Shown here: piece after piece, positions 1 to 64,000 of the stretch
Position numbering within the stretch: position 1 is the stretch's first letter
Layout: each line of letters starts with the position of its first letter
Notes under the pieces: generated by a model
The model's database searches: none
Seen by the model: the letters and a program-made list of their open reading frames with translations, nothing else
Told to the model about the DNA's origin: nothing
Position numbers and translations under genes: made by a program
From: Naegleria gruberi
Lineage: Eukaryota
DNA length: 64,000 bases
Direction: 5' to 3' (one strand)
Assembly (NCBI GenBank): GCA_000004985.1
Contig: GG738876.1

Positions 1-1369
1 TGGAAGGTTGAGATGAAGATTTTTGTAAAATTAAATTAAAAGAACGAGATACAATTTGAATAGAATGCTTAGAAAAGAAATCCAAATCAATATCACTTGA
101 TCCAAAAATCCAAGAAAATATTCTTCTATTGATAGAGACATCTCCCTTTTCAATTAATAATAATGCAATACTACAAATACTTGTCAATTGTTCCATTGTA
201 AAAATAGTTGACGATTCCTCTACAACTTTATCCAACGTAATAAATGATGAAAGAATTTCTAAAGATGCCCGTTGTGCCATGACATTATTATCATTTAAAC
301 TTGTTATAATTGCTTGTGATACAATTTCAATAGATTCTCCAAATATTGGTGAATGAGCATTAAGAGTTTGTTCATTTTCTATTTTTGCCAATTATCGAAC
401 TGTTGAGAATATAAAAAATCTACTCACTTTTTAAACAATAAATTATATAATTAAGTCCTGAAACTCTAAAAAATGGTGTCGAAAGTATGCCTTTCCAAAG
501 AGATTTGAAAAATAGTTCCTGATCACTAATATTTCTCAATGTGTTCATGATTTTCAGTGTCTATAATGTTAAGCACTTATAGTATTCGAAATGAAAACCT
601 ACTCGTTTGTAAATATCACTTCCTTCCTCTTCCAATGCCGATAATAGTACAAGAATTAAACCAGACAAGCATGGTAAAAGAGATTTTCCTAAAGGCAAAT
701 AATAAGTCTCGATTAAATCTAAAATTACAGGCTTTGTGTTTTGTCAATTATTTAAAAAATTAAATTAAATTCCATACCTTGATTTGAGAAGAAGCACTTG
801 GAAAGAGTGTAAAAATTCCAGAACTATACAAGTGAATATCTCTTGCCAAACGTTTTCCCTGAATAGAATATAAATTTCCATATGATACTTGCTCCAAAAT
901 TCAATACACTTACAGTAATTAATTTTAAAATTTCCTCATATGTTTCCAATGTTTTCAAATGAACTCCTCCAGGTAGAGCAGGATTTAAACATTGAGCCAA
1001 TCTTTTACAAACTGTAATTTTTTCAGGAAGAATGTGAAGTTGAGCGTTCTTGGTCAAGACTTTTTTCATCTTTTGAAGACACTTGATCAAATCAGCCCAT
1101 TCCCTAGTATTATCAAATGATTTTAATACGGAAATGATATCCTCTCGATAGGATTTAAATTTACTATTTTTCATAATTTGTTCGTCTTGAATATCGGGAT
1201 GTTCCTCCTCCGAATTGATGAGTGGTGAGAGTGTAATTTGTTGTGTGCTTTCAATTCTAGGCATGTTTGGAGATGATGTTGTTGATGATGATAATGTCGA
1301 TTTTGATTCAGTAGAATTGTCGGCTACCAAATCCCCAAAGCCAAGATTTTGAGAGAGGCTTTTAAACAT
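1..1369 (-). CDS. DOP1: DOP1 (Dopey) family protein, N-terminal part. The gene is multi-exon and runs off the window start. First exon about 911..1369, 55-nt intron at 856..910, next exons below 855.
   Basis: The translation 'SYREDIISVLKSFDNTREWADLIKCLQKMKKVLTKNAQLHILPEKITVCKRLAQCLNPALPGGVHLKTLETYEEILKLI' matches the conserved Dopey N-terminal motif (..SEWADLIS.L.KL...L.......LP.[28 protein letters not shown].I). Downstream minus-strand exons continue the match (GKRLARDIHLYSSGIFTLFP.., ETYYLPLGKSLLPCLSGLILVLLSALEEEGSDIY) after GTAAGT and GTATGG introns. Confidence 0.8.
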
Positions 1370-1721
1370 TTTTTAAATAGTTAATTAGTTGAATGGACAT
1401 GTTGGTCACAATGTGTTACGGCCCTGCTTGATTCAATGTATAGCAGTTTTTACTCTACGTGTATTCCTTCGACGTGTCAATTGAGTAAATAACATGTACT
1501 GAGTAATTTGAATGCCTCTGACGGTTTGTTGCTTGAAATTTTGCTGCAGTGTTTCCAAATGATGACAAAAATATTCATTGTAAAAATACTGGTCACCCAA
1601 ATTTTTTAAAATTGTTTCCGAAAAAAAATAACACAAGTGAGTATTGCTACTATCATGCTTTTTTTTTAACCTCTTTGTTTTTCAACAACAATAACTTATT
1701 GTTCCCTTCAATATAAGAAGA

Positions 1722-2192
1722 ATGAGCTTGGTTGTCGTTCAAGAAGAAAACTTCAAGGAATTGTTGCGTTTGTTCAACACTAACATTGAAGGTAGAAGAT
1801 CCGCACTCTATGCCTTGACCTCTGTTAAGGGTATTGGTAGACGTTTCGCTGGTATTGTCTTGAAGAAGGCTGAAATCGAACTTACCAAGAGATCTGGTGA
1901 ATTGAGCGAAGAACAAATCAACAAGATTCAAGATATCATTCTTGCTCCAGAAAAGTACAAGATTCCATCTTGGTTCTTGAACAGAAGAAGAGACTGGAAG
2001 AGTGGTGCCACTGAACACTTGGTTGCCAACGCTGTCGATATGTACTTGAGAGAAGATTTGGAAAGACTTAAGAAGATCAAGTCTGAAAGAGGTTTGAGAC
2101 ACATGTGGGGTCTTAGAGTCAGAGGTCAACACACCAAGACTACTGGTAGAAGAGGTAAGACTGTTGGTGTCAGCCATAAGAAACGTGGATAG
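1722..2192 (+). CDS. RPS18: 40S ribosomal protein S18 (uS13). Single exon, 156 aa, TAG stop.
   Basis: Near full-length identity in pattern to eukaryotic RPS18: 'RVLNTNI(D/E)GRR', 'KGVGRR(Y/F)A', 'YKIPDWFLNR', '[28 protein letters not shown]'. Confidence 0.95.
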
Positions 2193-2307
2193 GTCCCCTA
2201 ATTTAAACACAAATAAAAAAACATTATTTCATAAATTTTAACATTTTTTTAAAATTATTTATGAAATTTATGTTGTTTTAATTCCAAAAATGTCAATAAA
2301 CTATTGG
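2193..2307. repeat. Copy A of a ~110-bp AT-rich dispersed/tandem unit (gtcccctaatt[t/a]aaacac..aataaaaaa..tttcataaatt..aacattttt..aattcca[aat]aatgtcaataaactat) immediately after the RPS18 stop. Contains AATAAA.
   Basis: Direct sequence comparison of four copies at 2193, 2359, 2470 and 5529. Confidence 0.8.
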
Positions 2308-2344
2308 TATTTGGTTTCTTAAAATTGGCACTGTACGAGCTGTA

Positions 2345-2412
2345 AGAAACGTGGAAAGGTCCCCTAATTTAAACACAAATAAAAAAACACAAATAAAAAA
2401 ACATTTTTAAAT
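2345..2412. repeat. Copy B, a truncated copy. It begins with a near-duplicate of the last 12 coding nt of RPS18 (aagaaacgtggaaag vs aagaaacgtggatag), followed by gtcccctaatttaaacacaaataaaaaaaca.
   Basis: Seen directly. Duplication of the RPS18 CDS end plus its 3' UTR start. Confidence 0.8.
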
Positions 2413-2421
2413 TTACTAGTT

Positions 2422-2590
2422 CTACGGTACTCAATTTGCCAATGTAATAATTTACTGAAAAGTGGATAGGTCCCCTAATTAAAACACTAAAAAGCAATTT
2501 CATAAATTTGAACATTTTTAAATTCCATTAATGTCAATAAACTATAGTGGTGTAAGGCATTAGTTTCTGAACCAATCCATTGGCGAATTG
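2422..2590. repeat. 23-bp inverted repeat (ctacggtactcaatttgccaatg at 2422-2444; cattggcgaattgagtaccgtag at 2568-2590; 1 mismatch) enclosing copy C. Hairpin/MITE-like structure.
   Basis: The reverse complement of the right arm equals the left arm except for one t/c. Confidence 0.75.
2456..2546. repeat. Copy C. It again starts with an RPS18-end-like 'gaaaagtggatag' and then gtcccctaattaaaacactaaaaagcaatttcataaatttgaacatttttaaattccattaatgtcaataaactatag.
   Basis: Seen directly. Most similar to copy D at 5529. Confidence 0.8.
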
Positions 2591-2804
2591 AGTACCGTAG
2601 AAAGAGTTTCAAACGAGTCATTTCTAGGTTTTCACAACATGATGGCTTTTCAAAATGGACCATCCATCTTTAATTTCCAACTGTTAATCCAAAGCGATCT
2701 GATTTACTGTTTTGGTTGGCCAACAATAAAAGCCTTCTACATGATTCAAAGAGCATTGAGAATGAATTGGAATTTTATAACGTTGCAACGAGAATAGTTG
2801 GTTA

Positions 2805-2975
2805 CTCAATACACCCCCACGGTCAAAATAGCCCTAGTGTTTGAACAGTATTACCGTAGTTCCTCTGGTTTATGAGACCGTCTCAACAACCTCTTACAAA
2901 ATGTCATAGAGACAGAATATCGGAACTACAACTTTTCGCTATTTTGAAATTTAATGGGTAATGGGGTGTATTGGA
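2805..2975. repeat. 11-12 bp perfect inverted repeat (caatacacccc at ~2807-2817 / ggggtgtattg at ~2963-2973) flanking ~145 bp. The palindromic motif taccgtag recurs at 2584 and 2853 (reverse complement at 2423).
   Basis: Seen directly. Confidence 0.5.
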
Positions 2976-3359
2976 AAACAAACAAATATTGGATACTACC
3001 AAATTTAAACAATGGACAAACGAACAAGTTTGCTCCTTGTTTTGCATATCAGCTTCTTTTGTACTGTCGACAGCTTTGAAAACTTGCCCTTGTTGTCGGG
3101 TGCAAATGATCTTCTTTTACAATATTTTACATTGTTGTTTACCTTGTCGTGCACGACAACCTAAAATAAATTTTAAAAAAAAATGCTCAAAAACTATGAA
3201 TTATCAGTCTAATCAACAACTATGAATTATCATTCTACTCTTCAACTTTCGGACCATTTCAGAATAATGTATTTTTAAAGACTTTTTCAGCATTTCGGAA
3301 AGACTATAAATACTGAAGGGAGGGTTTCGAATTGTCTTTAAAAATTATTCAAATATTCA

Positions 3360-5519
3360 ATGCCTAAACAACCTTGTTCATCACAAAGGAATGGTAAAAC
3401 TAGCCTTGAAACGGATCAAATTCTCTTGGAATATTATTTAATTCATGGAAATTATTTGAATATCAATCAAAGTAATGCCGACTATCATTTTACTAACTCT
3501 CAATCGAAACAGAGATGGAGAAGAATGAAGGAATGTTTTACAAATAGAGTCATTCAATCCAATCCTTCTACCAATACAACACTGCACAAAATTTCTCTCC
3601 TTTATCCTAATCTGAAAAAGACCATTCTCTTTTCAATTACTTTAAATGATGAGGAGAAAATTATTGAATCAACTCGAAAAGAAATTGCTATCAATCCACC
3701 ACCCATTCAACAAACTCCATATAATAGAAAGGGTGTCTCTACCTTTGAAATTCATCCCGACTCTGAAACTATCAAACAATATTTCCAAAACTTGTTACAT
3801 AATCAAACTCATGTCAAGAAGGTTTCACTCAAAGAAATCAATGCAATTTGGGCTGAAATTGGTTTTGCTCATTACAAGAGTAAAAACACTACAAATAGTG
3901 AACCTGTCATTGCTGCTCAACTTTGTTCATTGAATGGAAAATCGTATGAGAGTGTCAAACAATCGTTCAAAGTTCATAGCAAACTCTATCACAAGAAGGA
4001 AAAGTGTTCTCAGTGTATGGGATTTGCTTGCTTTAATTATTCCATTCTTTGTAAAGGATGTACCTATTTGAAATTAATTGATCATGATCCAGTTATTTGG
4101 ATTCAAAAAACAGCTAATCCCAAAAAAATAGAATGGACCTTTACACTTTCCAACTGTAATAATTTGAATTATACTAGTCTTTTTAATTTGAAATACCCAG
4201 TTGATGATATTCAAAGTAACGACCTGTCAATTCAAAGTGATAAACAAGATGAAATGTCAATTCAAAGTGATGAAAACGGCTGTGACAATTATGAGGAAGA
4301 TGAAATGATGGATGAAACTAATGTAACTCAATCAAAAGAAAGTAATCAATCCATTCAAGAACGAATTCAAACATTTTACACTTCCTGTCATGATTATTGT
4401 AATATTTTTCAAGAAGAATTTAATGGTTTTCAAGAGTGGAAACCAAAATTTCAAAATTATGAACCACCCCATACTGCTCATCAATTAATGAATCAAGCTA
4501 TGGTCAGAAATCGAAACTTGTTGAAACTATTACCTCTTGAGGAGAATTACAATTTTATTTGGATTCAAAATGGTTCTGAAAAGAAACAATATTCTCAATG
4601 GATTGAATTGATTGAGAAGAATTTCAAATTGAAAACTCTTGATAATTTTAATGCAACAGATCCAATTATTTATGTCATGATATTTATTTTCAAAAAGGAT
4701 TATCAAATGGAACCAATGATTCAAATTGGTGAAAGTGAAAATTATCAAAAGAGAATGAATGGTTACAAATATGACAGTTCAGATCGATTGATCAATAGAG
4801 CCTTTAGTAAGGCCACATTAATTTTTAGTTGTCCTCTAGAGATTCAAGCTGATACACCCATACGTAAATTGAAAGAAACCTTTTATATTTGTCAATTGTT
4901 GGAACAAGCATTTCATCCTCTCAATAGCAATTTTAGTGATCCTGATAGTGTCAATCGCTTACATTCCATTTTTGATGGTAAAATTAATTTCTCAACATTG
5001 GATAGATTGAATTATTCAAGTTTTAACACTTCTCTCAAACTTTTACATCTTGATTCTGATGCTAATAATACCATTCATATTGAGAAGGGAAATTATGTGA
5101 TTGAAAGTAATAATCAAGTAGTATTGAGAAAACCATTTATATTCATGTTGGAAAGAGAGAAATTCAAACACTACTTTCCTCATGCTCCTCAAAAATTGTT
5201 GAATGCCTTTAACATTGCCTCAATCAAGTATCAAGGATTGAATAATTTATTGTATGACAATGATGAGTTGTACAAGGAGGAATACTTGCCAAAATGTTTT
5301 GGAATAATGAATAGAATTGTTCATCCCAAAGGTTTTGGCAAGTATTTGCGCTTTGATTTTCCAAGTGCATGTCTTGAATATGAAAATGGTTTTTATCCCA
5401 TTTCCTTCCTCTCTATTCGATGCAATTATGAACAAGTCATTAGAAAGGTCATTATGAAAAATACAATCATGAAGGATTGTATCTGCATTAACGATGTGGA
5501 AGATGATAATTTCATCTAA
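3360..5519 (+). CDS. Hypothetical 719-aa protein with no recognisable domain. It has a Cys cluster (CSQCMGFACFNYSILCKGCTYL) and an acidic repeat (SIQSDKQDEMSIQSDENG).
   Basis: Long uninterrupted ORF with ordinary codon usage. It is flanked upstream (2456-2790) and downstream (5529-5658) by copies of the same repeat unit. Confidence 0.55.
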   Translation: MPKQPCSSQRNGKTSLETDQILLEYYLIHGNYLNINQSNADYHFTNSQSKQRWRRMKECFTNRVIQSNPSTNTTLHKISLLYPNLKKTILFSITLNDEEKIIESTRKEIAINPPPIQQTPYNRKGVSTFEIHPDSETIKQYFQNLLHNQTHVKKVSLKEINAIWAEIGFAHYKSKNTTNSEPVIAAQLCSLNGKSYESVKQSFKVHSKLYHKKEKCSQCMGFACFNYSILCKGCTYLKLIDHDPVIWIQKTANPKKIEWTFTLSNCNNLNYTSLFNLKYPVDDIQSNDLSIQSDKQDEMSIQSDENGCDNYEEDEMMDETNVTQSKESNQSIQERIQTFYTSCHDYCNIFQEEFNGFQEWKPKFQNYEPPHTAHQLMNQAMVRNRNLLKLLPLEENYNFIWIQNGSEKKQYSQWIELIEKNFKLKTLDNFNATDPIIYVMIFIFKKDYQMEPMIQIGESENYQKRMNGYKYDSSDRLINRAFSKATLIFSCPLEIQADTPIRKLKETFYICQLLEQAFHPLNSNFSDPDSVNRLHSIFDGKINFSTLDRLNYSSFNTSLKLLHLDSDANNTIHIEKGNYVIESNNQVVLRKPFIFMLEREKFKHYFPHAPQKLLNAFNIASIKYQGLNNLLYDNDELYKEEYLPKCFGIMNRIVHPKGFGKYLRFDFPSACLEYENGFYPISFLSIRCNYEQVIRKVIMKNTIMKDCICINDVEDDNFI

Positions 5520-5528
5520 TATATGTGA

Positions 5529-5658
5529 GTCCCCTAATTAAAACACGAATAAAAAAGCAATTTCATAAATTTTACCATTTTTTATTTTTTTAATTTTTAT
5601 TTAATTCCATAAATGTCAATAAACTACAGATAATTGGAATTTTATAACGTTGCAATCA
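5529..5658. repeat. Copy D of the repeat unit, directly after the stop of the 3360..5519 gene. It includes the tail 'ttggaattttataacgttgcaa', which is also present at 2768-2789.
   Basis: Seen directly. Has AATAAA at 'aatgtcaataaac'. Confidence 0.8.
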
Positions 5659-7163
5659 ATATTGAAAAATCTCCTTCTCAACTTTCATTTTTTGTAAAAT
5701 AACACCTTTCAGAATGTATCATGGTGTGCAAGTCTTTATTTTCATCTAATATTTATGATATTATTTTTAATTCCATTTTTAACAGAGAGGATAAACCCAA
5801 TAATCCATACGATTTAAATAAAAAAACCATATTTAAAAATCAAATAATCATTTCGAATTGCTGCCGGCACAAATGGTGACAAAAATTGCTGGAAGCCACT
5901 GTATTCCCATCGAGATTGCTAACAAAATTTGTAGGAGCCATCTACTCAAGTCAATTTTCAATACCCTGTTTCAACAAACAGTCATTATTCTTTTCAGATT
6001 GGAGCAAGTCATTGATTTTTAAATATCTTGTTTTGCTATGAATTGTTGACTGTTATTGTGATTGCTGACTGTGAGGATTAATATGAACAATACGAATTGC
6101 TAAATTCTAATAATCCAATTAAGGGAAATGGGATAGATTGAATGGTAAGTTCCATTAACATGTCTCAATTCACCACGTATTGTCTCAATCATTTATTGTC
6201 TTATTACATTAACTAAAAAACTACTCCTCATCAGAGCTTGGCTTACAGAGAAATACTTTTTATCAATTAATTTTAATCCAGTAAGTGTTGAACTAATCTC
6301 TCCAGATATTAAATTCCATTTAACTATTTTATTGTGTTTCCATTTTTTGAAATTGTTTCTAGAGATGATTCCATTGGGAGAGAAAGTAAGGAGTGTTTGG
6401 ATTTGTGATTGTTAATGCCTTTTTCATTAAGGTTAAAAGTGTTGGTTCATTTTCTTAATTTTATTTAAAAAAATGAAACAATCCGAATGCATGTCTTTAT
6501 CAAGAAACGATGAACACTTTTTCCAAAGGAATTTGAAGCAATTCGTAAATTTTTGAGTGAAAATCAGTCAACATATTTATCTGGTTTTTATGAGCTGGAA
6601 ATTAGTATCGAAAAATCTCAGTATTTCTTTAAATGAAAAACAATGAAAAAAAGTGATTATCGTAAGATAGCCAATTTGAAGTTAAGAGCTGGGTAAGAGC
6701 TGCCGATGAATTGAGAGAATGTGTCAATAATTTTCCAAGCTCCAATAACATTAATAATAGAGAGGATTTCTTCAAGTATCGATTAAATTGGTTAATGTCA
6801 ATTGGTAATGACAATTTATATTTTGATTGTAGTGTTGAACTTGGCGAAAATATTAAATAAAATTAATACTGATATTTATATACGCAATGGTTATTCAAGG
6901 ATATATAATGTTTGCAAATTCCAATGATATGGATGATGCATTTAATTGTGAAGAATTTCACAAAACAATAATATTAACGATACTGACATCAATATTTTTA
7001 AGGCAACAGTCTTTTCATTTTTTTAATTCGATCGAATTTATCGATCTTTGAAAAGATTTATTTCAATTCTATTGATTGCATTGACGTTAACAGAGATAAT
7101 CTGGCAAAGTTGATTAATTTTAATTATTTTATTTTCAATTTTAACAATTTTTCAAAACTTAAT

Positions 7164-9076
7164 TTACCATCCGTAAAGTCCCTTACCAACACGAACCTTT
7201 TCTAAATAATCTTCAAAATCCTTCTTCAAATAAATAGGCATAACACCACGCATAGCAGCATCTCTATCAACAGATCTAAGTTGATCAACACACTTGAAGA
7301 AAGCAGGAATGACGTTCAAAATATTTCTACTACCATAGAGTCTGACAGAACAGTATTTAAGACCCAAATAAGCACACAACTTTCTTAAAATTGGATTGGC
7401 AGTTGGTTGTTCCTTAGTACTAGGGTGAATTCTGACTTTACAAGCACCAAACTTGGCTTCGAGCATATGAGAACGTGGAATGCAAGCAGAAGGATCAATA
7501 CTTCTAATATTCTTATAAGCAGCCTTTCTTGCCTTTGATTGAGCAACTGCTGGACTGGCAGCTGTACCAAAACCAACACCACACAATCCACTGTAACTTC
7601 CTACCAAGTACAAACAATTGTATGATTCAACTCTACCACCAGTGGTCATTTTACAATTTCTTGAAAGCTTGAGAACCTTTTCTTCGAATGAAACATCTGT
7701 AATAGCATCCTTTTGACCGTGATAAATTTCTGGATCTTCAACATCATCAGCAAGTGGGTGAGTAATTGCTGGTTCACCTTCATATTCATAAAGTGATTCA
7801 TCCCAATCAGCATCAAGATCAACATCTCCAAAGTAACCCTTTTCAACACCAACACTAGCATTATAAATTGGATTAACACTAACATTAGTCTTGGATGACT
7901 TTCCCTCTATGATTGATTCTAAATTTTGGATTTGTTGTCCAAGTTGTGTTTCATCAAATTGATATAAATAGAAAGGAGCTGATGTTTCATCTCTTTCTTG
8001 TCTTAACAGCTTAGTGTTCAATGATTTAATCATATCGGATTGATCAACCTTTGAAACTTTGAATCTCTTTCCTTGCAATTTACCTAAATTTTCAACATCT
8101 TGAGAAACACGTTCAAATGACTTTGGAACTTGAATTCTTTCAGGATCAGCTTCATTCTTTTCTTCAATTAATTCATGGAATCTAGAGTAATCTTTTCTAA
8201 CTCTTAAAGCTTCTTGTAATTCATTAATTGGTATGTTTTCATCGACATCCTCAATATCTATAGTATCAATTTCATTTGACCCAACTTCTTCTTCATCTTC
8301 AATTTCTTCCATTTGTTCATTTTCATTATCCTCGTCTTGATCTCTTCTTGAGATGTTATCTTCATCAACCATTTCATCTAAGTCATCCAAATCGGCTTGA
8401 GTCTTTAATTTACTCAAATCATATAAACTTTTAACTTTGAATCTGTTATATTCAGTTTCGGCAGGTTGAGAAAAAGTACCAGGGAACATTCCAAAGTTAG
8501 TATATTTAGCCCAAATTCTTTCCTTTTGTACAGCTCTTGGTAATTGAAGGTTAACGTTGGCTTGTAAGAGACTCAAACTAATAAAGGCTTCCTTGATTTT
8601 TCTTACAAGTTTTGTTTCCTTCTTTTCGGTAGCGAGCCAATAAACAACTTTATGTCTCTTTTCCTTACGCAAATTCTTGAGGTAGAAGACAAGAGTTTCA
8701 AACATTTCTTCAGTGAATTTAGTACCTTGTTGTTTTGCTTCTATAATATTGATAAACTAGTTATAAAATTATTATTGTTGTTGTTTAACATTATTTTGAG
8801 AGCGATAATATTACATACGTCTTTATCATTATCTGTTGTTGGGAAATTTAATTCTTCGGCAGGAATTTCTCTATTTCTTTCTTTTTCTTCCATTTGTTTA
8901 AGTTCGCTATCACTAATTCTTTCAAAAGAATTTTTAATGATTTTACTTGATGAAAAGCATCGGCTTTGAATATATGAAGGAGAGTTGTGAATTGAAGAAA
9001 AACAAAGAGGTGATTGCTTGGTGGCCAACTTCTTAGTTGAAGAAGGGAGCTGGCGCAAAAGTTTAATGTTTCTCAT
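7164..9076 (-). CDS. MRPS5: Mitochondrial ribosomal protein S5 (uS5m). Two exons: 8820..9076 and 7164..8754, with a ~65-nt intron at 8755..8819 (GTATGT..CTAG). N-terminal mitochondrial presequence.
   Basis: C-terminal 'GRVESYNCLYLVGSYSGLCGVGFGTAASPAVAQSKARKAAYKNI...KVRIHPSTK...SVRLYGSRNILNVI' is the S5 dsRBD and C-terminal domain pattern. The first exon 'MRNIKLLRQLPSSTKKLATKQSPLCFSS' is basic/hydroxylated and presequence-like. Reading frame is maintained across the proposed splice. Confidence 0.8.
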
Positions 9077-10034: not shown

Positions 10035-12218
10035 ATGGAACAACGACAAGACTACGTTGCCGAAGAACAAGAAGAGGACATGTTTTTCAATGCTGGAAGA
10101 GTTGCCAACTATGCTGAACAATATGCACCTTCCCAAAGATTGAAAGATAATCTTCTTGGAAAGTCTTCCTCCAATAATCAGGACGATATTAATCTTCAAA
10201 AGCAATTGAATAAGCAACAACAACAACAACAACAACCAATACAGCAACCAATACAACAGCAACAACAACAACAATATCAACAACCACCAATTGCTGCCAT
10301 CACTACTCCAATAAGAACCATGAATAATAGCAATAATACAAATATTGTTAGTAATAATAGTAATACCGTACCAACCCCTTTGATGATGAGCAGCAATAGT
10401 AATTCAACCACTAGAAATGTACCATTATCAACACCAATGAATAGTTATAATAATAATAATAGCAGCATTCCTTCAACAGAATCTAGATTGCCTACACTTC
10501 CATCAATTCCTTCAACAATTTTAAATAGCTCATCTACTCTAAGTAATAGTGCCACATCTTCCTCCATAGAAAAAACTCTTCCAATCCTTTCTAGTCCTGG
10601 TGTAGTAGGTGTAGTGAGTTCAGATCAGAAAAGAAAGATTTCATTGCAGTATTTGGCAGAAATATCCAACTTTTCAAGAAAAGACGTTCAAGGTTTGTTA
10701 TTCTATACTTGAATTTATGATTGATTTACTTTTATAGATGCTATGGTCAGTAAGATTGATAGTGAGTCAGGAGAAATCTATGGTAACATACCAGAGATTA
10801 TTGTTGGTATGAAATACTCATCCAGAATGGACTTGTTGGATGCAAAGATTCACACAGACCTCCAGTCAGATATTTGTACAAATGGGAATTATATCAAACC
10901 AGTCCCTGCTCTCATAATTTATGATACACAAGAGAGACATGAGGATAGAGGAACTGTTGTACTTTACTCTATTCCATTCAATGGTGTTCACTCAGACCTT
11001 TATACAGCTCCATCTATTAAGGGTACACCTTGTGAGGCTCTCGCTCAAAATTCTATCTACAAGATTCCTGTTAGAGTTATTAGAGGTAGTTATGAATCAT
11101 CGGTTGATGATGGAAAGAAGTTTAGAAATGGACATTGTCCAACACAAGGATACAGATATGATGGTATTTACTTTGTTGGCGAATACTTTTATGAACCAGG
11201 TGCAACCTCCTTTGTATTCAAGTTGATCAGAATATATGGGCAACCTGAATTACCACATGCTCCCAACTTGGCTGAACCTCCTGTTAGAAACAATTCCTCT
11301 AATAACCAAATACCTCCTTCATTCTCAAATCCGCAACAACAAGGACCACCATCTAATATGCCAAACATGCCAAACGATAGAAAGATATTTGGAATACCTT
11401 CTTTCGTTACACAAAGAATACTATCAGGAAGTAACCAAGACTACCTAGCTCAGAGTACAAGAAACTCACACAACATGCCATTCATACCATCCCTTCCTCA
11501 AAACTACTCACATTCCAATAATTATAATAGCCAAGCAAATAATCCTCAAAACCCTCATTCACTTCCAGCCATGCCTTCAATGCCAAACATGAACTATAAT
11601 AGAAATAACTTCCCAAATAACAATAACATGAATAATAATAACTACAACGAACCACCTCCTCAAAACAATAGACCTATTATGAGAAATACTGGTCAGTCAA
11701 GCTCACAATCATTTGGTTCTCCATCATTCCCTAATAATGGTAATAATAACAATAGCAGTAGCAATAATAATAATGATGGACTTAATCTGACTCATACCTC
11801 TGTAAGACAAATGATTAATAACCTCAAATTCCAAAACAGTAACTTTGGTGGCCGTATTCAGTCATATTCGTATAATATTTCAGAGTTAGCTTCTAAGGTA
11901 GAAGATGTACAAAAATCAATGCCAGCCCTTGGTAGACAATTAACTTCGAGAAATAAGACTTTCACATGGAAGTTGGGACAAGAGAAAGAACAGGAAGAAT
12001 ATGACAGAACTAAATACTTTGTCTATGACGATGATGAGGATGTAAGTGAAGAGGAAGAATTAGAAATTGAAAGACCTTCAAGATCTAAAAAGAAAAAGAC
12101 ACATCATACAAGCAGTGGCAGTAGTGGTACAATGAGTAGTAGTGGGAATAATAGTGTGAGAACAACCCCCAATGATTCGAATTCGACAAACTCAAACAAT
12201 AAACAACAGCAACACTAA
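10035..12218 (+). CDS. SRA-YDG domain protein. Poly-Q/N-rich N-terminal exon (10035..10692), 45-nt intron (10693..10737), then the YDG domain and N/Q/P-rich tail.
   Basis: 'YGNIPEIIVGMKYSSRMDLLDAKIHTDLQSDIC...IRGSY...GYRYDGIYFVGEYF' matches the SRA/YDG fold motifs (G.IPG..VG..F..R.EL...G.H; RYDG.Y). CAA/CAG repeats give poly-Q. Confidence 0.75.
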
Positions 12219-37178: not shown

Positions 37179-38279
37179 TTAATTAAATATTAAGAGTTTT
37201 AATAGCCTCTTGATTTTATGATTTTTTAAAAATTCATGAGCTAGTAATTTTAATTCATTAAAACTTTTACAACTTTGATTAAAAATAATAATAGAAGAAA
37301 ATAAACCAATAAATTGTTGTTCCATAAATGAATCATGACCAAAATAAATATCCATCTCAGTTTGTAAATAACTATCATCATTACATAAAAGTAATTCATT
37401 ATCAATAAAAGATAAATCAAAATAATATTCAACTCCATTTAATAGACACAATATTTCTCTATTATTATTATTATTATTATTAATTATTAAATGTTTATAA
37501 ATAAATCTCCGAGGTTCAATAGATTCAATGATGGATTTTGGATTATTATTATAGGATATCCAAATATCATTCCATTCACCTTCTTTTAATGGATTAAATG
37601 AAGTATTATTATTATTAAATGAATTAATTAAATTATTATTATTTAAATTATTATCATCATTTAAATTATTAATTGCATGATTAAATGATATATTATTATT
37701 AAATGAAAAATAATCTTTTGAATTATTTAATGTAATTGAATCTATATCAAGTTTAAACCATTTACTTCCTCTTCCAAAACATAGAATACATTGACCACTT
37801 CCTCTTTCAATAAATAATCTTAATAATATTGTAAATCCAGTATAATTAAATAAATGTTCAGGTGCAACTATGGGTCCAACTTTAGGTCGATAAGTTGAAT
37901 ATTCTCCATCAAGTATTGAACCAATTTCTGGATGAATAAATTCTTCATTTTGATAAATATAGGATCTGTAATCAATTCGTTGTTGATCTGTTGTGTGATA
38001 TTTTAATGATTTTGGATATTCATGTAATAGACTATTATTGGAATGTTTAGGAGAATCAATAAATAAATTAAAATCTGAACTATTCACATCAGTTAGTAAT
38101 GATTGAAACCAAAAATTCATTTCACTATGTTTTTTAGATAGCTTTTCTTTTAATCCTGTTGATAATGGATTCATTGTTGATTCGGAATGATGAAAATCAA
38201 TTAATATTAAATTGACCATTTTTTTTGATTGATGAAATTGAAACATCAAAAGTAATGAACATGATAAGTGCATTATCAA
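37179..38279 (-). CDS. Hypothetical N-rich protein.
   Basis: ORF only. Confidence 0.3.
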   Translation of the reverse strand: MIMHLSCSLLLMFQFHQSKKMVNLILIDFHHSESTMNPLSTGLKEKLSKKHSEMNFWFQSLLTDVNSSDFNLFIDSPKHSNNSLLHEYPKSLKYHTTDQQRIDYRSYIYQNEEFIHPEIGSILDGEYSTYRPKVGPIVAPEHLFNYTGFTILLRLFIERGSGQCILCFGRGSKWFKLDIDSITLNNSKDYFSFNNNISFNHAINNLNDDNNLNNNNLINSFNNNNTSFNPLKEGEWNDIWISYNNNPKSIIESIEPRRFIYKHLIINNNNNNNREILCLLNGVEYYFDLSFIDNELLLCNDDSYLQTEMDIYFGHDSFMEQQFIGLFSSIIIFNQSCKSFNELKLLAHEFLKNHKIKRLLKLLIFN

Positions 38280-57898: not shown

Positions 57899-60516
57899 TC
57901 ATTTACTCATATCAATGGAAATATCATCAGTGAGGGTTTGGGTGCTGTGTGTAGAGATAGATGAAATACTCTCTCTTATCTTTTTGATAGCAAAGTCTAG
58001 TAAACCAACGATTGGAAAATCAAGCCATATTTTCTCATCATTATTCATTTCGTTTGTCCATAGAATCAATCTTTGAAGGAGGAATGATTTTTCTTCACTA
58101 GAAATTTGGGATGGATTAGTAAGGCATTTGGAGAGCTCTTGCCTTAGTTCTATCCTCTCTTTATCACATGGTTCAATATAGATTGGTAAAGTGAGCATTG
58201 AGACAGACTCTCTAAATTGGTTTCCTAATTCAAAGTGTTGGACATAGTACCTTCTTGGTGAGTTAGAATCAATGGCCCAGTAAAGGGTATGCGTTCCCTC
58301 TAAGCCTTTGAGCTCAAAATTACCCATATTATCAAAGTGAATCTGTCCATCTTGGACTAGTTCTTTAAATTGCTCTAGTTCGTCTTTGAAAGTCGTAATA
58401 AAAGGAGTATCTTTAGGCAGACTATTGGTAGATGAAAGAGCTGTGGCGCGGTGCTTAATAAAACTTTGGACATCTGAACTGACATATACTCTACCACCAT
58501 GTGATTTGCTTTCAGTTCTTGCAGCTTGGTTGACTGCAGTGCCAAAGTAATCATATCTCTTGGTGGTTGGGTCAAATTGGGATTCAATTTCTTTTCCAAA
58601 GTGAACGCCCATTTTAACTCTTGGTCCTTTGTAAATAATTTCATTATTCCACTTGACTTCTTTCATGTCTGGAAATTCCAACATTTCAGGTGTCCAATGT
58701 CCTTTCAATAAGCCGTTTTGAATAGCAAAACAGCAACCTAGTGCTTCTATTGGATCATTGAATGCGATCATAAAACTGTCTGATTGGGTTTTCACTTCAT
58801 ATCCTTTAAACTTTCGAATATTTTCTCGCACTATTCTATGGTGAATGGCCAATACTTTCTTCATCAAATCTGAATCTAAAGTCCACATTAAGGATGAATT
58901 TTGTATGTGAGTGAAAACAATGCAAATAGGAGCTACTTTTGGAGCTAGACGATTTTCTCTCTTTCTAATCGAATTCTTTCTAACAACCCATCCAATCAAG
59001 AACACAAAAATTCCAACCAATAATATTGCAATAGTAAAACTGACAACACTGATGGAAATAATGAATTCGTTTCTCTTCTCAATTGGTAATACAGGCTCAG
59101 CAGTCCAAGCTTTCCACTTGGCTGTATTGTTTGGGTTTGATAACCACTTACAAGCAGCATCTTCTAAAGTCATTGAATTGTAAGCAACATATCCCATCAT
59201 GGTTACTTGATCTCTACCTCTATAATTCAAATTTTTAAGAAAGTTTTGAACACTTGAAGAGAGAGAAGAGACAGCACTCGTTTGGAGCTTACTATATGTT
59301 GACAAAGGGTAATCACAATCAACCAATCCATTGGCAATATTGTGAGCTGTATGACAGCTATCAGTAAATTGAGGAAGATAGATTCTAGATGGTGGATTAG
59401 GTCTACTGAATAATTGATGTGGAAACCAAAAATATGAAACCATCTCTTTTCGTTGTTGTTGAGCGTTTTGTAAATTTTCAATGAGATAGGTTTCAGTATC
59501 ATTATCAGGTGCATATTCCAACTGCAAATTCAACTTTAAATTCTTGATAATCTGATCATCATAATTCACCCAAGTTTTAGAGCCACTGACCATTCTTGTC
59601 ATGTTTGAAAGTCTAAAGTATCTGTAGTTATTTTGAACTGCATCCTTCATGAAATTTGGAATGAAAAACCCAATTTGGCCACTCGGACCCAAATCGCCAA
59701 TGTCTGTAATATGTTTACCATTAACCACATATTTTCTAAGATGAAAAGATTACTTGTTAGAAAGATCAGCGCATGCACTTACTTGTAATTTTCAAAGTTA
59801 GATAATTTCCAGTATTCTAACAACGCAATTGGACGTGTGGCTCCTTCCTTTTCCATAAGTTCCAAAGAATCCACAATATTTAGTTTTAAAATATCAACGC
59901 AAACTCCTAATTTTTCCTCGAGTATTATTGTTGCAAGAGCATTATTCATCGAGCTCGCCAGCCAATTATTTTCAATAAGAGTTATTCTTGGTGAAAAAGA
60001 GGAACAGTGGCTTGAAGATGCATCTTCAGGTAGACAACTGGCAACTGTTTTTCTAGTCGACGAAATATGTTGATACTGATGGGTTTGCATGTTTTCCAAT
60101 GGCGATCCACTCACAAAATAATAAGTTTCGTAATCGTGATTGTCAAGCTTATCAGCACCAATAAACATGCTAATAACAAATACAAAAAGTATTAATTTTG
60201 TGATAATGGATAATCTGGACCGTTTCCAATAATGTAATCCAACAAAACTACTACTACTAATATTCCTCGTAATCATAATATTCAATATAAAATAGCAAAT
60301 CCACCACATAATTCTCGAATCAAACATGATAAAATCACAATATGAAATTTCATCCATTTGTATTTCAAACTTTCTTTGATTAATCGTGTATTCATCATCT
60401 CCTACTTCTTGTTCATTCCGTCTTCCCTCCAGAAGCAGCATTAATACGTTGTTGTTGCCAGCACAAGTTGTATCGGAAAGAACATGTTTGCCCATTTTTT
60501 TTCGTTCTCTCGTCAT
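57899..60516 (-). CDS. Receptor-type class III adenylate/guanylate cyclase. Order from the N-terminus: signal-anchor/TM, extracellular OpuAC/ProX-like substrate-binding domain, TM, cyclase catalytic domain, C-terminal tail. Two exons: 59783..60516 and 57899..59735, with a 47-nt intron at 59736..59782.
   Basis: Cyclase core 'ICIVFTHIQNS...YEVKTQSDSFMIAF...GPRVKMGVHFG...YDYFGTAVNQAARTES' fits the class III motifs (F.DI.GFT, GD, G.H.G, N..R). The extracellular part 'ITLIENNWLASSMNNALATIILEEKLGVCVDI...LLEYW...YFWFPH' resembles PF04069 OpuAC (type II PBP). TM 'FIISISVVSFTIAILLVGIFVFLIGWVV' precedes the cyclase domain. GTAAGT donor is in phase. Confidence 0.75.
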
Positions 60517-62370: not shown

Positions 62371-64000
62371 TTATGCTCCAGATTGAATCAATTCTTCAGG
62401 GCATGACATTACTGCGATAGAACTAGAAGAAGAAAGCGACTCTTTTCTACAGGGTTGAGCGACACTATTTCGTCTTTTCCTGTTATCTGGACGGATAATT
62501 GTATCTTCATATGCATATTCTTTGTTATCTGAAACAATGTTATCCATTTCAGCAGGAAGATAATGAGAGATGACAATTGGTATGAGATGCTTCAATTCCA
62601 ATTCAGTCCATGCATCCTTTTCTTCTTCGGTATCATTATTCCACAATACAAGCCTATGCAGAAGTTTACTCTTCTCATTTTCATTCCATTTCGATGGATC
62701 ACTTATACATGATGCACACGATTGTTTCAATTCCATTCGTTCCTTATCAATTTTCTCTCTCAACAATGGAACTGATAATCCAGAGTCAATTCTAACATGA
62801 GGCAACAATTCGAATTGTTGAATGTAGGAAGTTCGAGGGGAAGTTGTATCCATAATCCAAAACAAAGTGTGATTACCTTCCAATCCTTTCAAAATAAAGT
62901 TTCCCATATTTTCGAATTGGATTTTTCCAGAGTAAAGCAATTGTTTGAATTGAAAGATTGGATCCTTATGAATGGGAAACCCCTTATCCATGCAAATATT
63001 GCAACGAGAAGCTCCTCCCATTTGATGCTTTAGGTGGTCGTGAATATTTGAGCAAATGTAAATTCTTCCTCCTTGAGCTTGATTTTCAGTTCTAGATGCT
63101 TGGTTGACCGTCGTGCCAAAGTAATCATATCTCTTGGTGGTTGGATCAAAATGAGCTTCCACTTCACTGCCATAATGAAGGCCCATTCTAACTCTTGGTC
63201 CTTTGTAAATAATTTCATTATTCCACTTGACTTCTTTCATGTCTGGAAATTCCAACATTTCAGGTGTCCAATTTCCTTTCAACAAATCATTCTGAATAGC
63301 AAAACAACAACCAATTGCTTCTATTGGGTCACTGAAGGCAATCATAAAGCTGTCTGATTGAGTTTTCACTTCATATCCTTTAAACTTTCGAATATTGTCT
63401 CGAACAATTTTGTGATGAATGGTAACAACTTTCTTCATCAAATCTGAATCCAAAGTCCACAACAGTGAAGCATTCTGAATATGAGTGAAAACAATGCAAA
63501 TAGGTGGTGCTTTTGGGGCCAATCTATTTTCTCTCTTTCTAATCGAATTCTTTCGAATGCAAAATCCACAGCAAAAAACACAAAAACCAATTAGTATAAT
63601 AGCAAGTGTAAACCCCACAACAGTCATTGAAATAATAAAGGCATTACTCTTCTCCGGTTGAAAAGGTGGCTCTGAAATCCAACTCTTCCATCTCTCTGTA
63701 TTATTGCCTTTCAAAATCCAAGTACAGGCAGCATCCTCTTTCGACATTTTATCATACGAAACTAAGCCTAACAGTTCAATCTGGTCAGCATTCGTCAGTT
63801 TCATCCTTTCCAAAAAGTTTTGCACTTTTTCAGGAAAACTCAACACTGCCCTAGTTTGCAGTTTACTGTAAGTAGTCATGGCAAAATCACAATCCACCAA
63901 ATTATTCTCCACATTGTGAGGTGATACACATTCTGCAGTAAATGGTGGAAGTGTCACACGTTGTGGAGCATTAGGTCTACTGAATAATTGATGAGGTGTG
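62371..64000 (-). CDS. Second receptor-type class III cyclase, a close paralog of 57899..60516. It is partial, and its N-terminal extracellular part continues beyond the window end.
   Basis: Protein is collinear with the first cyclase (same TM, 'ICIVFTHIQNASLLWTLDSDLMKKV', 'YDYFGTTVNQASRTE'). There are stretches of >60 bp nucleotide identity (for example tcatgtctggaaattccaacatttcaggtgtccaat in both). The end of the OpuAC-like region is visible at 63650-64000. Confidence 0.75.
   Translation of the reverse strand, partial: TPHQLFSRPNAPQRVTLPPFTAECVSPHNVENNLVDCDFAMTTYSKLQTRAVLSFPEKVQNFLERMKLTNADQIELLGLVSYDKMSKEDAACTWILKGNNTERWKSWISEPPFQPEKSNAFIISMTVVGFTLAIILIGFCVFCCGFCIRKNSIRKRENRLAPKAPPICIVFTHIQNASLLWTLDSDLMKKVVTIHHKIVRDNIRKFKGYEVKTQSDSFMIAFSDPIEAIGCCFAIQNDLLKGNWTPEMLEFPDMKEVKWNNEIIYKGPRVRMGLHYGSEVEAHFDPTTKRYDYFGTTVNQASRTENQAQGGRIYICSNIHDHLKHQMGGASRCNICMDKGFPIHKDPIFQFKQLLYSGKIQFENMGNFILKGLEGNHTLFWIMDTTSPRTSYIQQFELLPHVRIDSGLSVPLLREKIDKERMELKQSCASCISDPSKWNENEKSKLLHRLVLWNNDTEEEKDAWTELELKHLIPIVISHYLPAEMDNIVSDNKEYAYEDTIIRPDNRKRRNSVAQPCRKESLSSSSSIAVMSCPEELIQSGA

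Follow-up and report, generated by a model that had tools for sequence, protein, structure and literature searches.

Copies of the RPS18 3' end bracket a lineage-specific orphan gene in Naegleria gruberi

We analyzed a 64,000-nucleotide stretch of nuclear DNA from Naegleria gruberi (hereafter the window; contig GG738876.1 of assembly GCA_000004985.1, GC content ~32%), in which the orphan gene NAEGRDRAFT_68992 is flanked on both sides by copies of a repeated unit. Judged by its sequence, this unit is the 3' end of the nearby ribosomal protein gene RPS18 (uS13), and the orphan gene lies in DNA that N. gruberi has gained between RPS18 and the mitoribosomal uS5 gene (uS5m). On balance, the gene is probably a newcomer that settled in a duplicated stretch of the RPS18 3' end and makes use of the polyadenylation region present there. 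An initial annotation of the window had described the flanking repeats and had proposed either a captured or transposed cassette or a gene born within a repeat-mediated duplication. The first of these proposals is supported in part and the second is not, as described below.

Source and relationships of the repeated unit

The unit comprises the end of the RPS18 coding sequence (CDS), ~20 nt in length, and a 3' flank of ~130-145 nt in which the AATAAA hexamer occurs twice. Sensitive self-blastn of the window identified four copies, c1 to c4 (Table 1), all of them within 3.5 kb downstream of RPS18. The copies on either side of the orphan open reading frame (ORF), which the initial annotation had counted as two, are both present; c1 and c2 had been overlooked, as had the start of the unit inside the RPS18 coding end and a 30-nt inverted repeat that brackets the body of c3.

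Sequence that belongs only to the parent gene is found in the copies. In c2, 18 of the 21 nt of the RPS18 coding end are retained (2338-2358; P<0.0005 by shuffling), with the TAG stop codon changed to AAG. In c3, the remnant covers 13 nt directly before GTCCCC, of which 12 match, and its TAG is intact. The copy adjoining RPS18, c1, aligns positionally with the RPS18 3' flank of N. fowleri for ~45 nt past the stop codon, to ~2237 (blastn). Because the unit includes the last codons and the stop codon of RPS18, and because c1 is native flank alignable in N. fowleri, these results indicate that the unit is host sequence, RPS18's own 3' end, and not the end of a mobile element. The RPS18 protein is 88% identical to that of N. 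fowleri and 87% identical to that of Willaertia magna, and its C-terminus is conserved in both species; the coding-end sequence is therefore the ancestral one, and RPS18 was the template from which the other units were copied.

Within the window, the unit is confined to 2172-5657. Its core, GTCCCCTAATT, has four occurrences, all in 2193-5539 (0.72 expected), and is found nowhere else in the 64 kb, which argues against a common motif of 3' untranslated regions (UTRs), a reading that the initial annotation had considered. The 20-mer GGAATTTTATAACGTTGCAA, correctly described as the shared end of the two flanking copies, occurs exactly twice (2769-2788 and 5636-5655; none expected by chance), and AATGTCAATAAACTA occurs exactly at 2289, 2530, and 5612. 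A metagenome scan for the core 18-mer GTCCCCTAATTWAAACAC returned 17 matches, a chance level, none of which extends past the 18-mer or encodes the ORF. An origin of the units as retrocopies (processed pseudogenes) was rejected: the copies stand in tandem beside the parent gene, and all of them lack a terminal poly(A) tract.

To align the copies for their history, we started at GTCCCC and rejoined the two parts of c3. When 2547-2759 is removed, c3 is colinear end to end with c4, including a tail identical at 24 of 24 positions, indicating that c3 is one full unit split by a 213-nt insertion. Outside its inverted-repeat arm, this insertion gave no blastn or tblastx match and no Pfam match. The c3-c4 pair is the most similar, at 91.5% identity over 106 shared sites (c1-c2, 85.7%; c1-c3, 81.9%; c1-c4, 80.5%; by blastn, c1 and c4 are 76.5% identical over 132 nt, E = 2 × 10^-20). 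Among c1, c3, and c4, the odd one out was c1 at 13 sites, c3 at 5, and c4 at 3. The 91.5% identity of c3 and c4, together with the 13 sites at which c1 stands alone, shows that c3 and c4 are sister copies. Since they diverged, these ~130 nt have gathered 8.5% substitutions, three or more indels, and the 213-nt insertion. The 3' flanks of the outgroups align over only ~45 nt and are too diverged to polarize individual substitutions.

Head to tail behind RPS18 stand c1, c2, and c3, with spacings of 166 nt (c1-c2, start to start) and 111 nt (c2-c3). In front of GTCCCC, c2 and c3 have a junction segment of 38 nt in common (P = 0.016). Unlike c2 and c3, c4 has no recognizable piece of the RPS18 coding end in front of it (P = 0.4-0.9 in upstream comparisons). 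Between them, c3 and c4 enclose 2.74 kb (2790-5526) made up of 570 nt of unique upstream sequence and the intact ORF, and this segment ends 7-9 nt after the ORF stop codon. The 30-nt inverted repeat around the c3 body is unique in the window and has a DNA folding energy of -32.1 kcal/mol (z = -5.0); it may have originated as a templated repair insertion or as a small foldback element.

A possible fifth, degenerate copy at 5725-5790 was rejected, with a score of 29 against 26.2 ± 3.9 in shuffled sequences. The same interval contains a 34-nt match (76%) to the last codons and stop codon of the ORF (5495-5528), 230 nt downstream of them, followed by TTTTTAATTCCAT as in the unit. A likeness between the last codons of the ORF and the sequence upstream of c3 was likewise discarded as not significant (P = 0.9).

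An orphan gene in lineage-specific DNA

We compared the locus with those of related amoebae. N. fowleri (L003; L004 has the same layout) has the gene order Dopey(-) / RPS18(+) / uS5m(-) / ... / SAD_SRA(+), which is also that of N. gruberi, and in W. magna (L006) RPS18(+) and uS5m(-) are likewise convergent. The distance between the RPS18 and uS5m stop codons is 119 nt in N. fowleri and 582 nt in W. magna, as against 4,971 nt in N. gruberi. Nucleotide homology to N. fowleri ends at ~2237 and restarts at ~7122, and the N. fowleri neighbor of RPS18 is 68% identical in amino acid sequence to N. gruberi uS5m. Across the 20 kb compared, neither an ORF homologue nor, at the RPS18-uS5m site, the repeats were found in N. 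fowleri or W. magna, so that the relatives do not have the gene without the repeats. These gap lengths indicate that ~4.9 kb (2240-7120) is a lineage-specific gain in N. gruberi and that the compact arrangement is ancestral. The presence or absence of this DNA at a conserved site between conserved genes is a comparison across species and genera, not across strains. An insertion between 2.4 and 5.7 kb, as first suggested, is thus borne out as extra DNA, but its extent is wider.

Two metagenome contigs from the European Nucleotide Archive (L001 and L002; ERZ4903137 and ERZ27254754) come from a close relative, with an RPS18 that is 97% identical in amino acid and 87% in nucleotide sequence. Similarity to N. 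gruberi is gone ~42 nt past the RPS18 stop codon in both contigs and the unit is absent, indicating that the duplications are recent, younger than that split. In L001 (678-862) and in L002, no uS5m is seen within 185 nt, and a plus-strand ORF (724-861) runs off the contig end; the RPS18 3' junction may have been remodeled independently in this lineage.

The ORF product is 100% identical to an N. gruberi "predicted protein" encoded on a scaffold of 396,977 bp. Judged by base composition, 719 codons without a stop would arise by chance with a probability of 1.5 × 10^-26, and the other five frames hold 25-97 stops. Relative synonymous codon usage correlates with that of the host genes of the window at r = 0.84 (host range, 0.80-0.95), and GC content at third codon positions (GC3) is 0.27. 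Given the stop-free length and the host-like codons, the ORF is, as far as composition can tell, certainly a real and maintained coding sequence. The same probability makes it implausible that a 719-codon ORF arose de novo in DNA of 31% GC, which counts against the proposal of a gene born within the duplication. Since c3 and c4 have diverged by 8.5% substitutions with indels, an unconstrained 2.2-kb ORF of equal age would be broken; selection has thus presumably kept the ORF open since c3 and c4 diverged.

Homologues of the ORF product were sought widely. A word-indexed search of 5.8 × 10^9 proteins returned only the protein itself, as did an exhaustive phmmer search of 1.84 × 10^9 representative proteins, which also gave no paralogue. 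No relative was found in IMG/VR or among PDB sequences, and no second copy exists within the window or, as a protein paralogue, in the databases that contain the ORF product. The full-length protein matches no Pfam family at E<=0.01, in agreement with the initial description of an ORF without a recognizable domain, and gave no match in PHROGs or NCBIfam; no transposase, reverse transcriptase, or integrase was detected by these three resources. We found no paper that mentions NAEGRDRAFT_68992, XP_002675666, or D2VJC8, and the locus is not addressed in the main text of the N. gruberi methylome paper.

No repeats, protein matches, Rfam families, tRNAs, or similarity elsewhere were found for 2791-3359, and nothing in N. 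fowleri or W. magna corresponds to 5658-7121. Small ORFs in 2547-3359 and 5658-7121 have no Pfam match, and these regions gave no tblastx match and no paralogous ORF fragment. The region 5658-7121, 1.46 kb long and lying right of c4, may be what decay has left of a larger insertion.

We then considered how 3' ends are marked in this DNA. AATAAA is not enriched overall in the window (147 occurrences; 157 expected). In 14 of 36 long ORFs, however, it starts within -3 to +60 nt of the stop codon, as against 7.0% of random positions (P = 5.8 × 10^-8). It often overlaps or abuts the TAA stop, as at the stops 16538(-), 30613(+), 31744(-), 37179(-), 40177(-), 46473(-), 52919(+), and 55236(+), which implies that 3' UTRs in the N. 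gruberi genome are extremely short. The first AATAAA lies 22 nt from the RPS18 stop codon and, inside c4, 31 nt from the stop codon of the orphan ORF, a typical distance for the window. This enrichment just after stop codons makes the unit copy behind the ORF plausible as a functional 3' end, and c4 is likely to be the 3'-end formation region of the ORF.

Table 1. Coordinates of features at the RPS18-uS5m locus of the window
Feature	Position	Strand	Remarks
RPS18 (uS13) gene, 156 aa	1722-2192	+	Pfam Ribosomal_S13, E = 2.7 × 10^-47; source of the unit
c1, native RPS18 3' end	2172-2336	+	Last 21 nt of CDS, TAG stop, AATAAA at 2212 and 2295; contiguous with CDS
c2, truncated tandem copy	2338-2414	+	83% identical to c1 over 77 nt, E = 5 × 10^-14
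Inverted repeat, left arm, 30 nt	2415-2444	+	27/30 complementary to 2578-2607; just before c3
c3 body	2447-2546	+	Coding-end remnant 2457-2469, then unit from GTCCCC (2470) to AATAAACTATA
Insertion splitting c3, 213 nt	2547-2759	+	Carries right inverted-repeat arm, 2578-2607
c3 tail	2760-2790	+	2765-2788 identical (24/24) to 5632-5655
Upstream region of orphan gene, 570 nt	2791-3359	+	TATAAATA at 3305-3312, 48 nt before the ATG
Orphan gene NAEGRDRAFT_68992, 719 aa	3360-5519	+	XP_002675666.1; UniProt D2VJC8; TAA stop
Candidate GIY-YIG/T5orf172-like motif, aa 436-510	4665-4889	+	IIYVM...IQIGESENYQKRMNGY...LKETFY
c4, full unit	5527-5657	+	Starts ~8 nt after ORF stop; AATAAA at 5548 and 5618
Rest of lineage-specific DNA, 1.46 kb	5658-7121		No ORF >61 aa, no domain, no repeat
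uS5m gene	7122-8705 (CDS 7164-8705)	-	~42 nt of 3' flank; right-hand syntenic anchor

The ORFs neighboring the orphan gene are eukaryotic by Pfam and include Dopey, RPS18/uS13, uS5m (with the N- and C-terminal Ribosomal_S5 domains), a SAD/SRA protein, and the condensin Cnd3. No tRNA or Rfam family was found in window positions 1-9000. Elsewhere, the neighboring ORFs 57899-59728(-) and 62371-63957(-) are paralogous, with 83% identity over 300 nt (58467-58766 and 63041-63340) and a 33-nt block of 91% identity (at 59390 and 63964), both blocks being offset by 4,574 nt. The ORF 37179-38279(-) has a GC content of 0.22 and a GC3 of 0.09, far below the GC3 of the other window genes (0.22-0.32), and is accompanied by AT-rich repeats at 37462-37646. 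A CAA/CAG-rich run, a coding repeat of the polyglutamine type, lies at 10203-10300 inside the ORF 10035-10712.

Origin of the locus

In the history that we favor, the starting point is the convergent and adjacent arrangement of RPS18 and uS5m in the ancestor. The RPS18 3' unit was copied locally three times, giving c2 and c3 head to tail after c1 and c4 behind the ORF. The ORF-bearing DNA would have entered a surplus copy of this 3' region. Insertion could have followed either of two routes: a ~130-nt target may have been duplicated by fill-in of a staggered break, leaving a long target-site duplication, or the DNA may have gone in precisely at the boundary of two tandem units. The gene would have arrived without a 3' UTR of its own and would use c4 for cleavage and polyadenylation, with c1 kept by RPS18. 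Later repair or replication slippage would have left c2 truncated and c3 split and would have produced the inverted 30-mer, all of them scars. Several points weigh against this history. A target duplication of ~130 nt is far longer than the classical target-site duplications of transposons, insertion between tandem units that were already present is an alternative to it, and an insertion of this kind does not account for the lineage-specific 1.46 kb that lie beyond c4.

The alternative just mentioned can be taken further. The four units may have first formed a simple tandem array by replication slippage or unequal crossing-over, with the ORF DNA later end-joined between the third and fourth units; the bracketing would then be incidental, and the ORF would be one of many fast-evolving lineage-specific Naegleria genes. 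The head-to-tail order and spacings of c1, c2, and c3, the 38-nt junction segment common to c2 and c3, and the host-like codon usage of the ORF are consistent with such an array, whose adjacent units should be the most alike, as c3 and c4 are. The array would, however, require an insertion exactly at a unit boundary, and a stop codon 8 nt before the unit, as coincidences; c4 does not have the coding-end piece carried by c2 and c3; and 5658-7121 is again left unexplained. We regard this course of events as unlikely. The captured or transposed cassette of the initial annotation, in its stricter form, would make the unit a terminal repeat that belongs to a mobile cassette or to a dispersed repeat family, resembling a long terminal repeat (LTR) or a miniature inverted-repeat transposable element (MITE), with the ORF as cargo. 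Direct repeats do bracket a single-gene segment that is absent from relatives, a 30-nt inverted repeat lies close by, and the ORF does belong to lineage-specific extra DNA; but a gene-moving repeat family is not supported, as the unit contains the stop codon and last codons of RPS18 and c1 is its native flank. The confinement of the unit to this locus in the window, the chance-level metagenome matches, and the lack of a transposase, reverse transcriptase, or integrase domain and of an ORF paralogue in the public proteins searched all speak against an element, and we found no LTRs and no terminal inverted repeats of an element's own, nor do inverted repeats mark the boundaries of 2240-7120 or 2790-5526. 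We consider this origin highly improbable.

A different alternative concerns the protein itself. The ORF could be a selfish, free-standing gene akin to homing endonucleases of the GIY-YIG/T5orf172 type, residing beside the essential and conserved RPS18 gene; cutting near the RPS18 end followed by error-prone or templated repair would yield the tandem and inverted copies, and the gene would spread or persist by double-strand-break repair. The presence of the gene here and its absence from the same site in relatives, together with scar-like duplications that include an inverted, templated 30-mer, would fit such activity. In residues 436-469 (IIYVMIFIFKKDYQMEPMIQIGESENYQKRMNGY), the order Tyr...Gly...Arg...Tyr, in the motif IIYVM-x13-IQIGESENYQKRMNGY, has a spacing that we read as that of GIY-YIG nucleases by comparison with I-TevI and UvrC. 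As criteria for the register, we used a Gly of 'YIG' 10-20 residues after the Tyr, an Arg 8 residues past this Gly, a Tyr or His another 4 residues on, and a downstream catalytic Glu; by eye, Y438, G457 (in QIG), R465, Y469, and E506 fit. A CxxC-x11-CxxC motif is also present at aa 216-234. T5orf172 (PF10544), the GIY-YIG subfamily that is common among phage homing-endonuclease genes (PMC10448857), was the only Pfam family to surface; an excised 136-aa segment scored 17.4 bits (E = 0.0067), below the cut-off of 20, and 389 aa gave E = 0.034. The GIY-YIG family proper (PF01541) never appeared, and neither family reached its gathering score.

Single-sequence AlphaFold2 (AF2) models had a predicted local distance difference test (pLDDT) score of 30.3 for the full length and 36.8 for aa 415-552, and are unusable, although the low-confidence model of aa 415-552 has the order strand-strand-helix-helix-strand-helix. 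Foldseek against PDB returned nothing significant (best E = 0.41). Its noise-level list included the UvrC GIY-YIG domain 1yd6 (ranks 6 and 30) and the UPF0213 structure 1zg2 (rank 14), which we take to be a GIY-YIG-family protein, at E = 2.4-3.7. A protein search with the motif segment alone gave no candidates. No test was thus significant: the Pfam scores are below threshold, and the searches of PHROGs, NCBIfam, and PDB sequences were empty. Moreover, no relative in another genome, whether at this site or elsewhere, turned up among the 1.84 × 10^9 proteins, in IMG/VR, or at the N. fowleri and W. magna loci, and the gene accordingly shows no sign of mobility; homing also normally leaves no long target duplication. 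We treat the GIY-YIG/T5orf172-like nuclease motif as an unproven lead, and an origin of the locus through a homing-type gene as quite unlikely. The stronger proposal, in which NAEGRDRAFT_68992 would be an active or recently active nuclear homing endonuclease of this type that targets the RPS18 3' end, with the RPS18-tail fragments as a fossil record of cut-and-repair cycles, seems to us decidedly improbable. To our knowledge, nuclear homing endonucleases occur only in rDNA group I introns, including the His-Cys box enzymes of Naegleria, and as LAGLIDADG proteins of the intein or HO type.

Known systems and meaning

The locus resembles several known systems. As in the duplication of a gene 3' end with recruitment of its terminator, the copies are host-derived, lie beside their parent head to tail, and are partly truncated and unevenly decayed, and one of them stands directly behind the stop codon of another ORF, with AATAAA at the usual distance. 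Here, however, the youngest pair brackets 2.7 kb of foreign-looking DNA instead of standing in tandem, and no source of the new gene could be detected. Target-site duplications, whether made by transposons or by capture of DNA at staggered breaks, are also sister direct repeats of a target that flank an insert absent from the orthologous site, but classical ones measure 2-20 nt, whereas the repeat here measures ~130 nt, and neither a transposase nor terminal inverted repeats, LTRs, or further copies were found.

Bacterial genomic islands insert at att sites of tRNA genes, in the 3' end of the gene, and regenerate the gene. Likewise, direct repeats of a 3' end flank the insert at our locus and the target gene is intact; by contrast, there is no tyrosine or serine recombinase, the four repeats are imperfect and partly tandem, and the target is a eukaryotic protein-coding gene. 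In phages, the Seg proteins of T4 are free-standing GIY-YIG homing endonucleases. With free-standing phage genes of the GIY-YIG and T5orf172 types, which in the case of T5orf172 are present in phage ICP1 (PMC10448857), the locus shares a single selfish-looking ORF that is flanked by conserved genes and that one lineage has while others lack it, and the product shares a modular, linker-rich architecture, a Cys4 motif, and a possible GIY-YIG-like core. It differs in its host, a eukaryotic nuclear genome, in having no homologues that we could find, and in its long flanking duplications, which are not a feature of homing; membership of the family is only a candidate assignment.

As it stands, the locus is a new example of known processes, namely a local duplication, a gene gained in one lineage, and a terminator that is probably borrowed, and belongs to ordinary genome evolution. 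If the weak nuclease signal were true, this would be a candidate for nuclear homing in a free-living excavate, and a nuclear GIY-YIG homing endonuclease associated with a protein gene would be a new situation. The RPS18-uS5m junction, nearly free of a gap in relatives, is a site where foreign DNA appears to have been tolerated. Taken together, these findings suggest that the locus would offer a clean and datable example of how a new gene can become expressible in a compact eukaryotic genome, by way of the ready-made polyadenylation region of a highly expressed gene and with its neighbors undisrupted.

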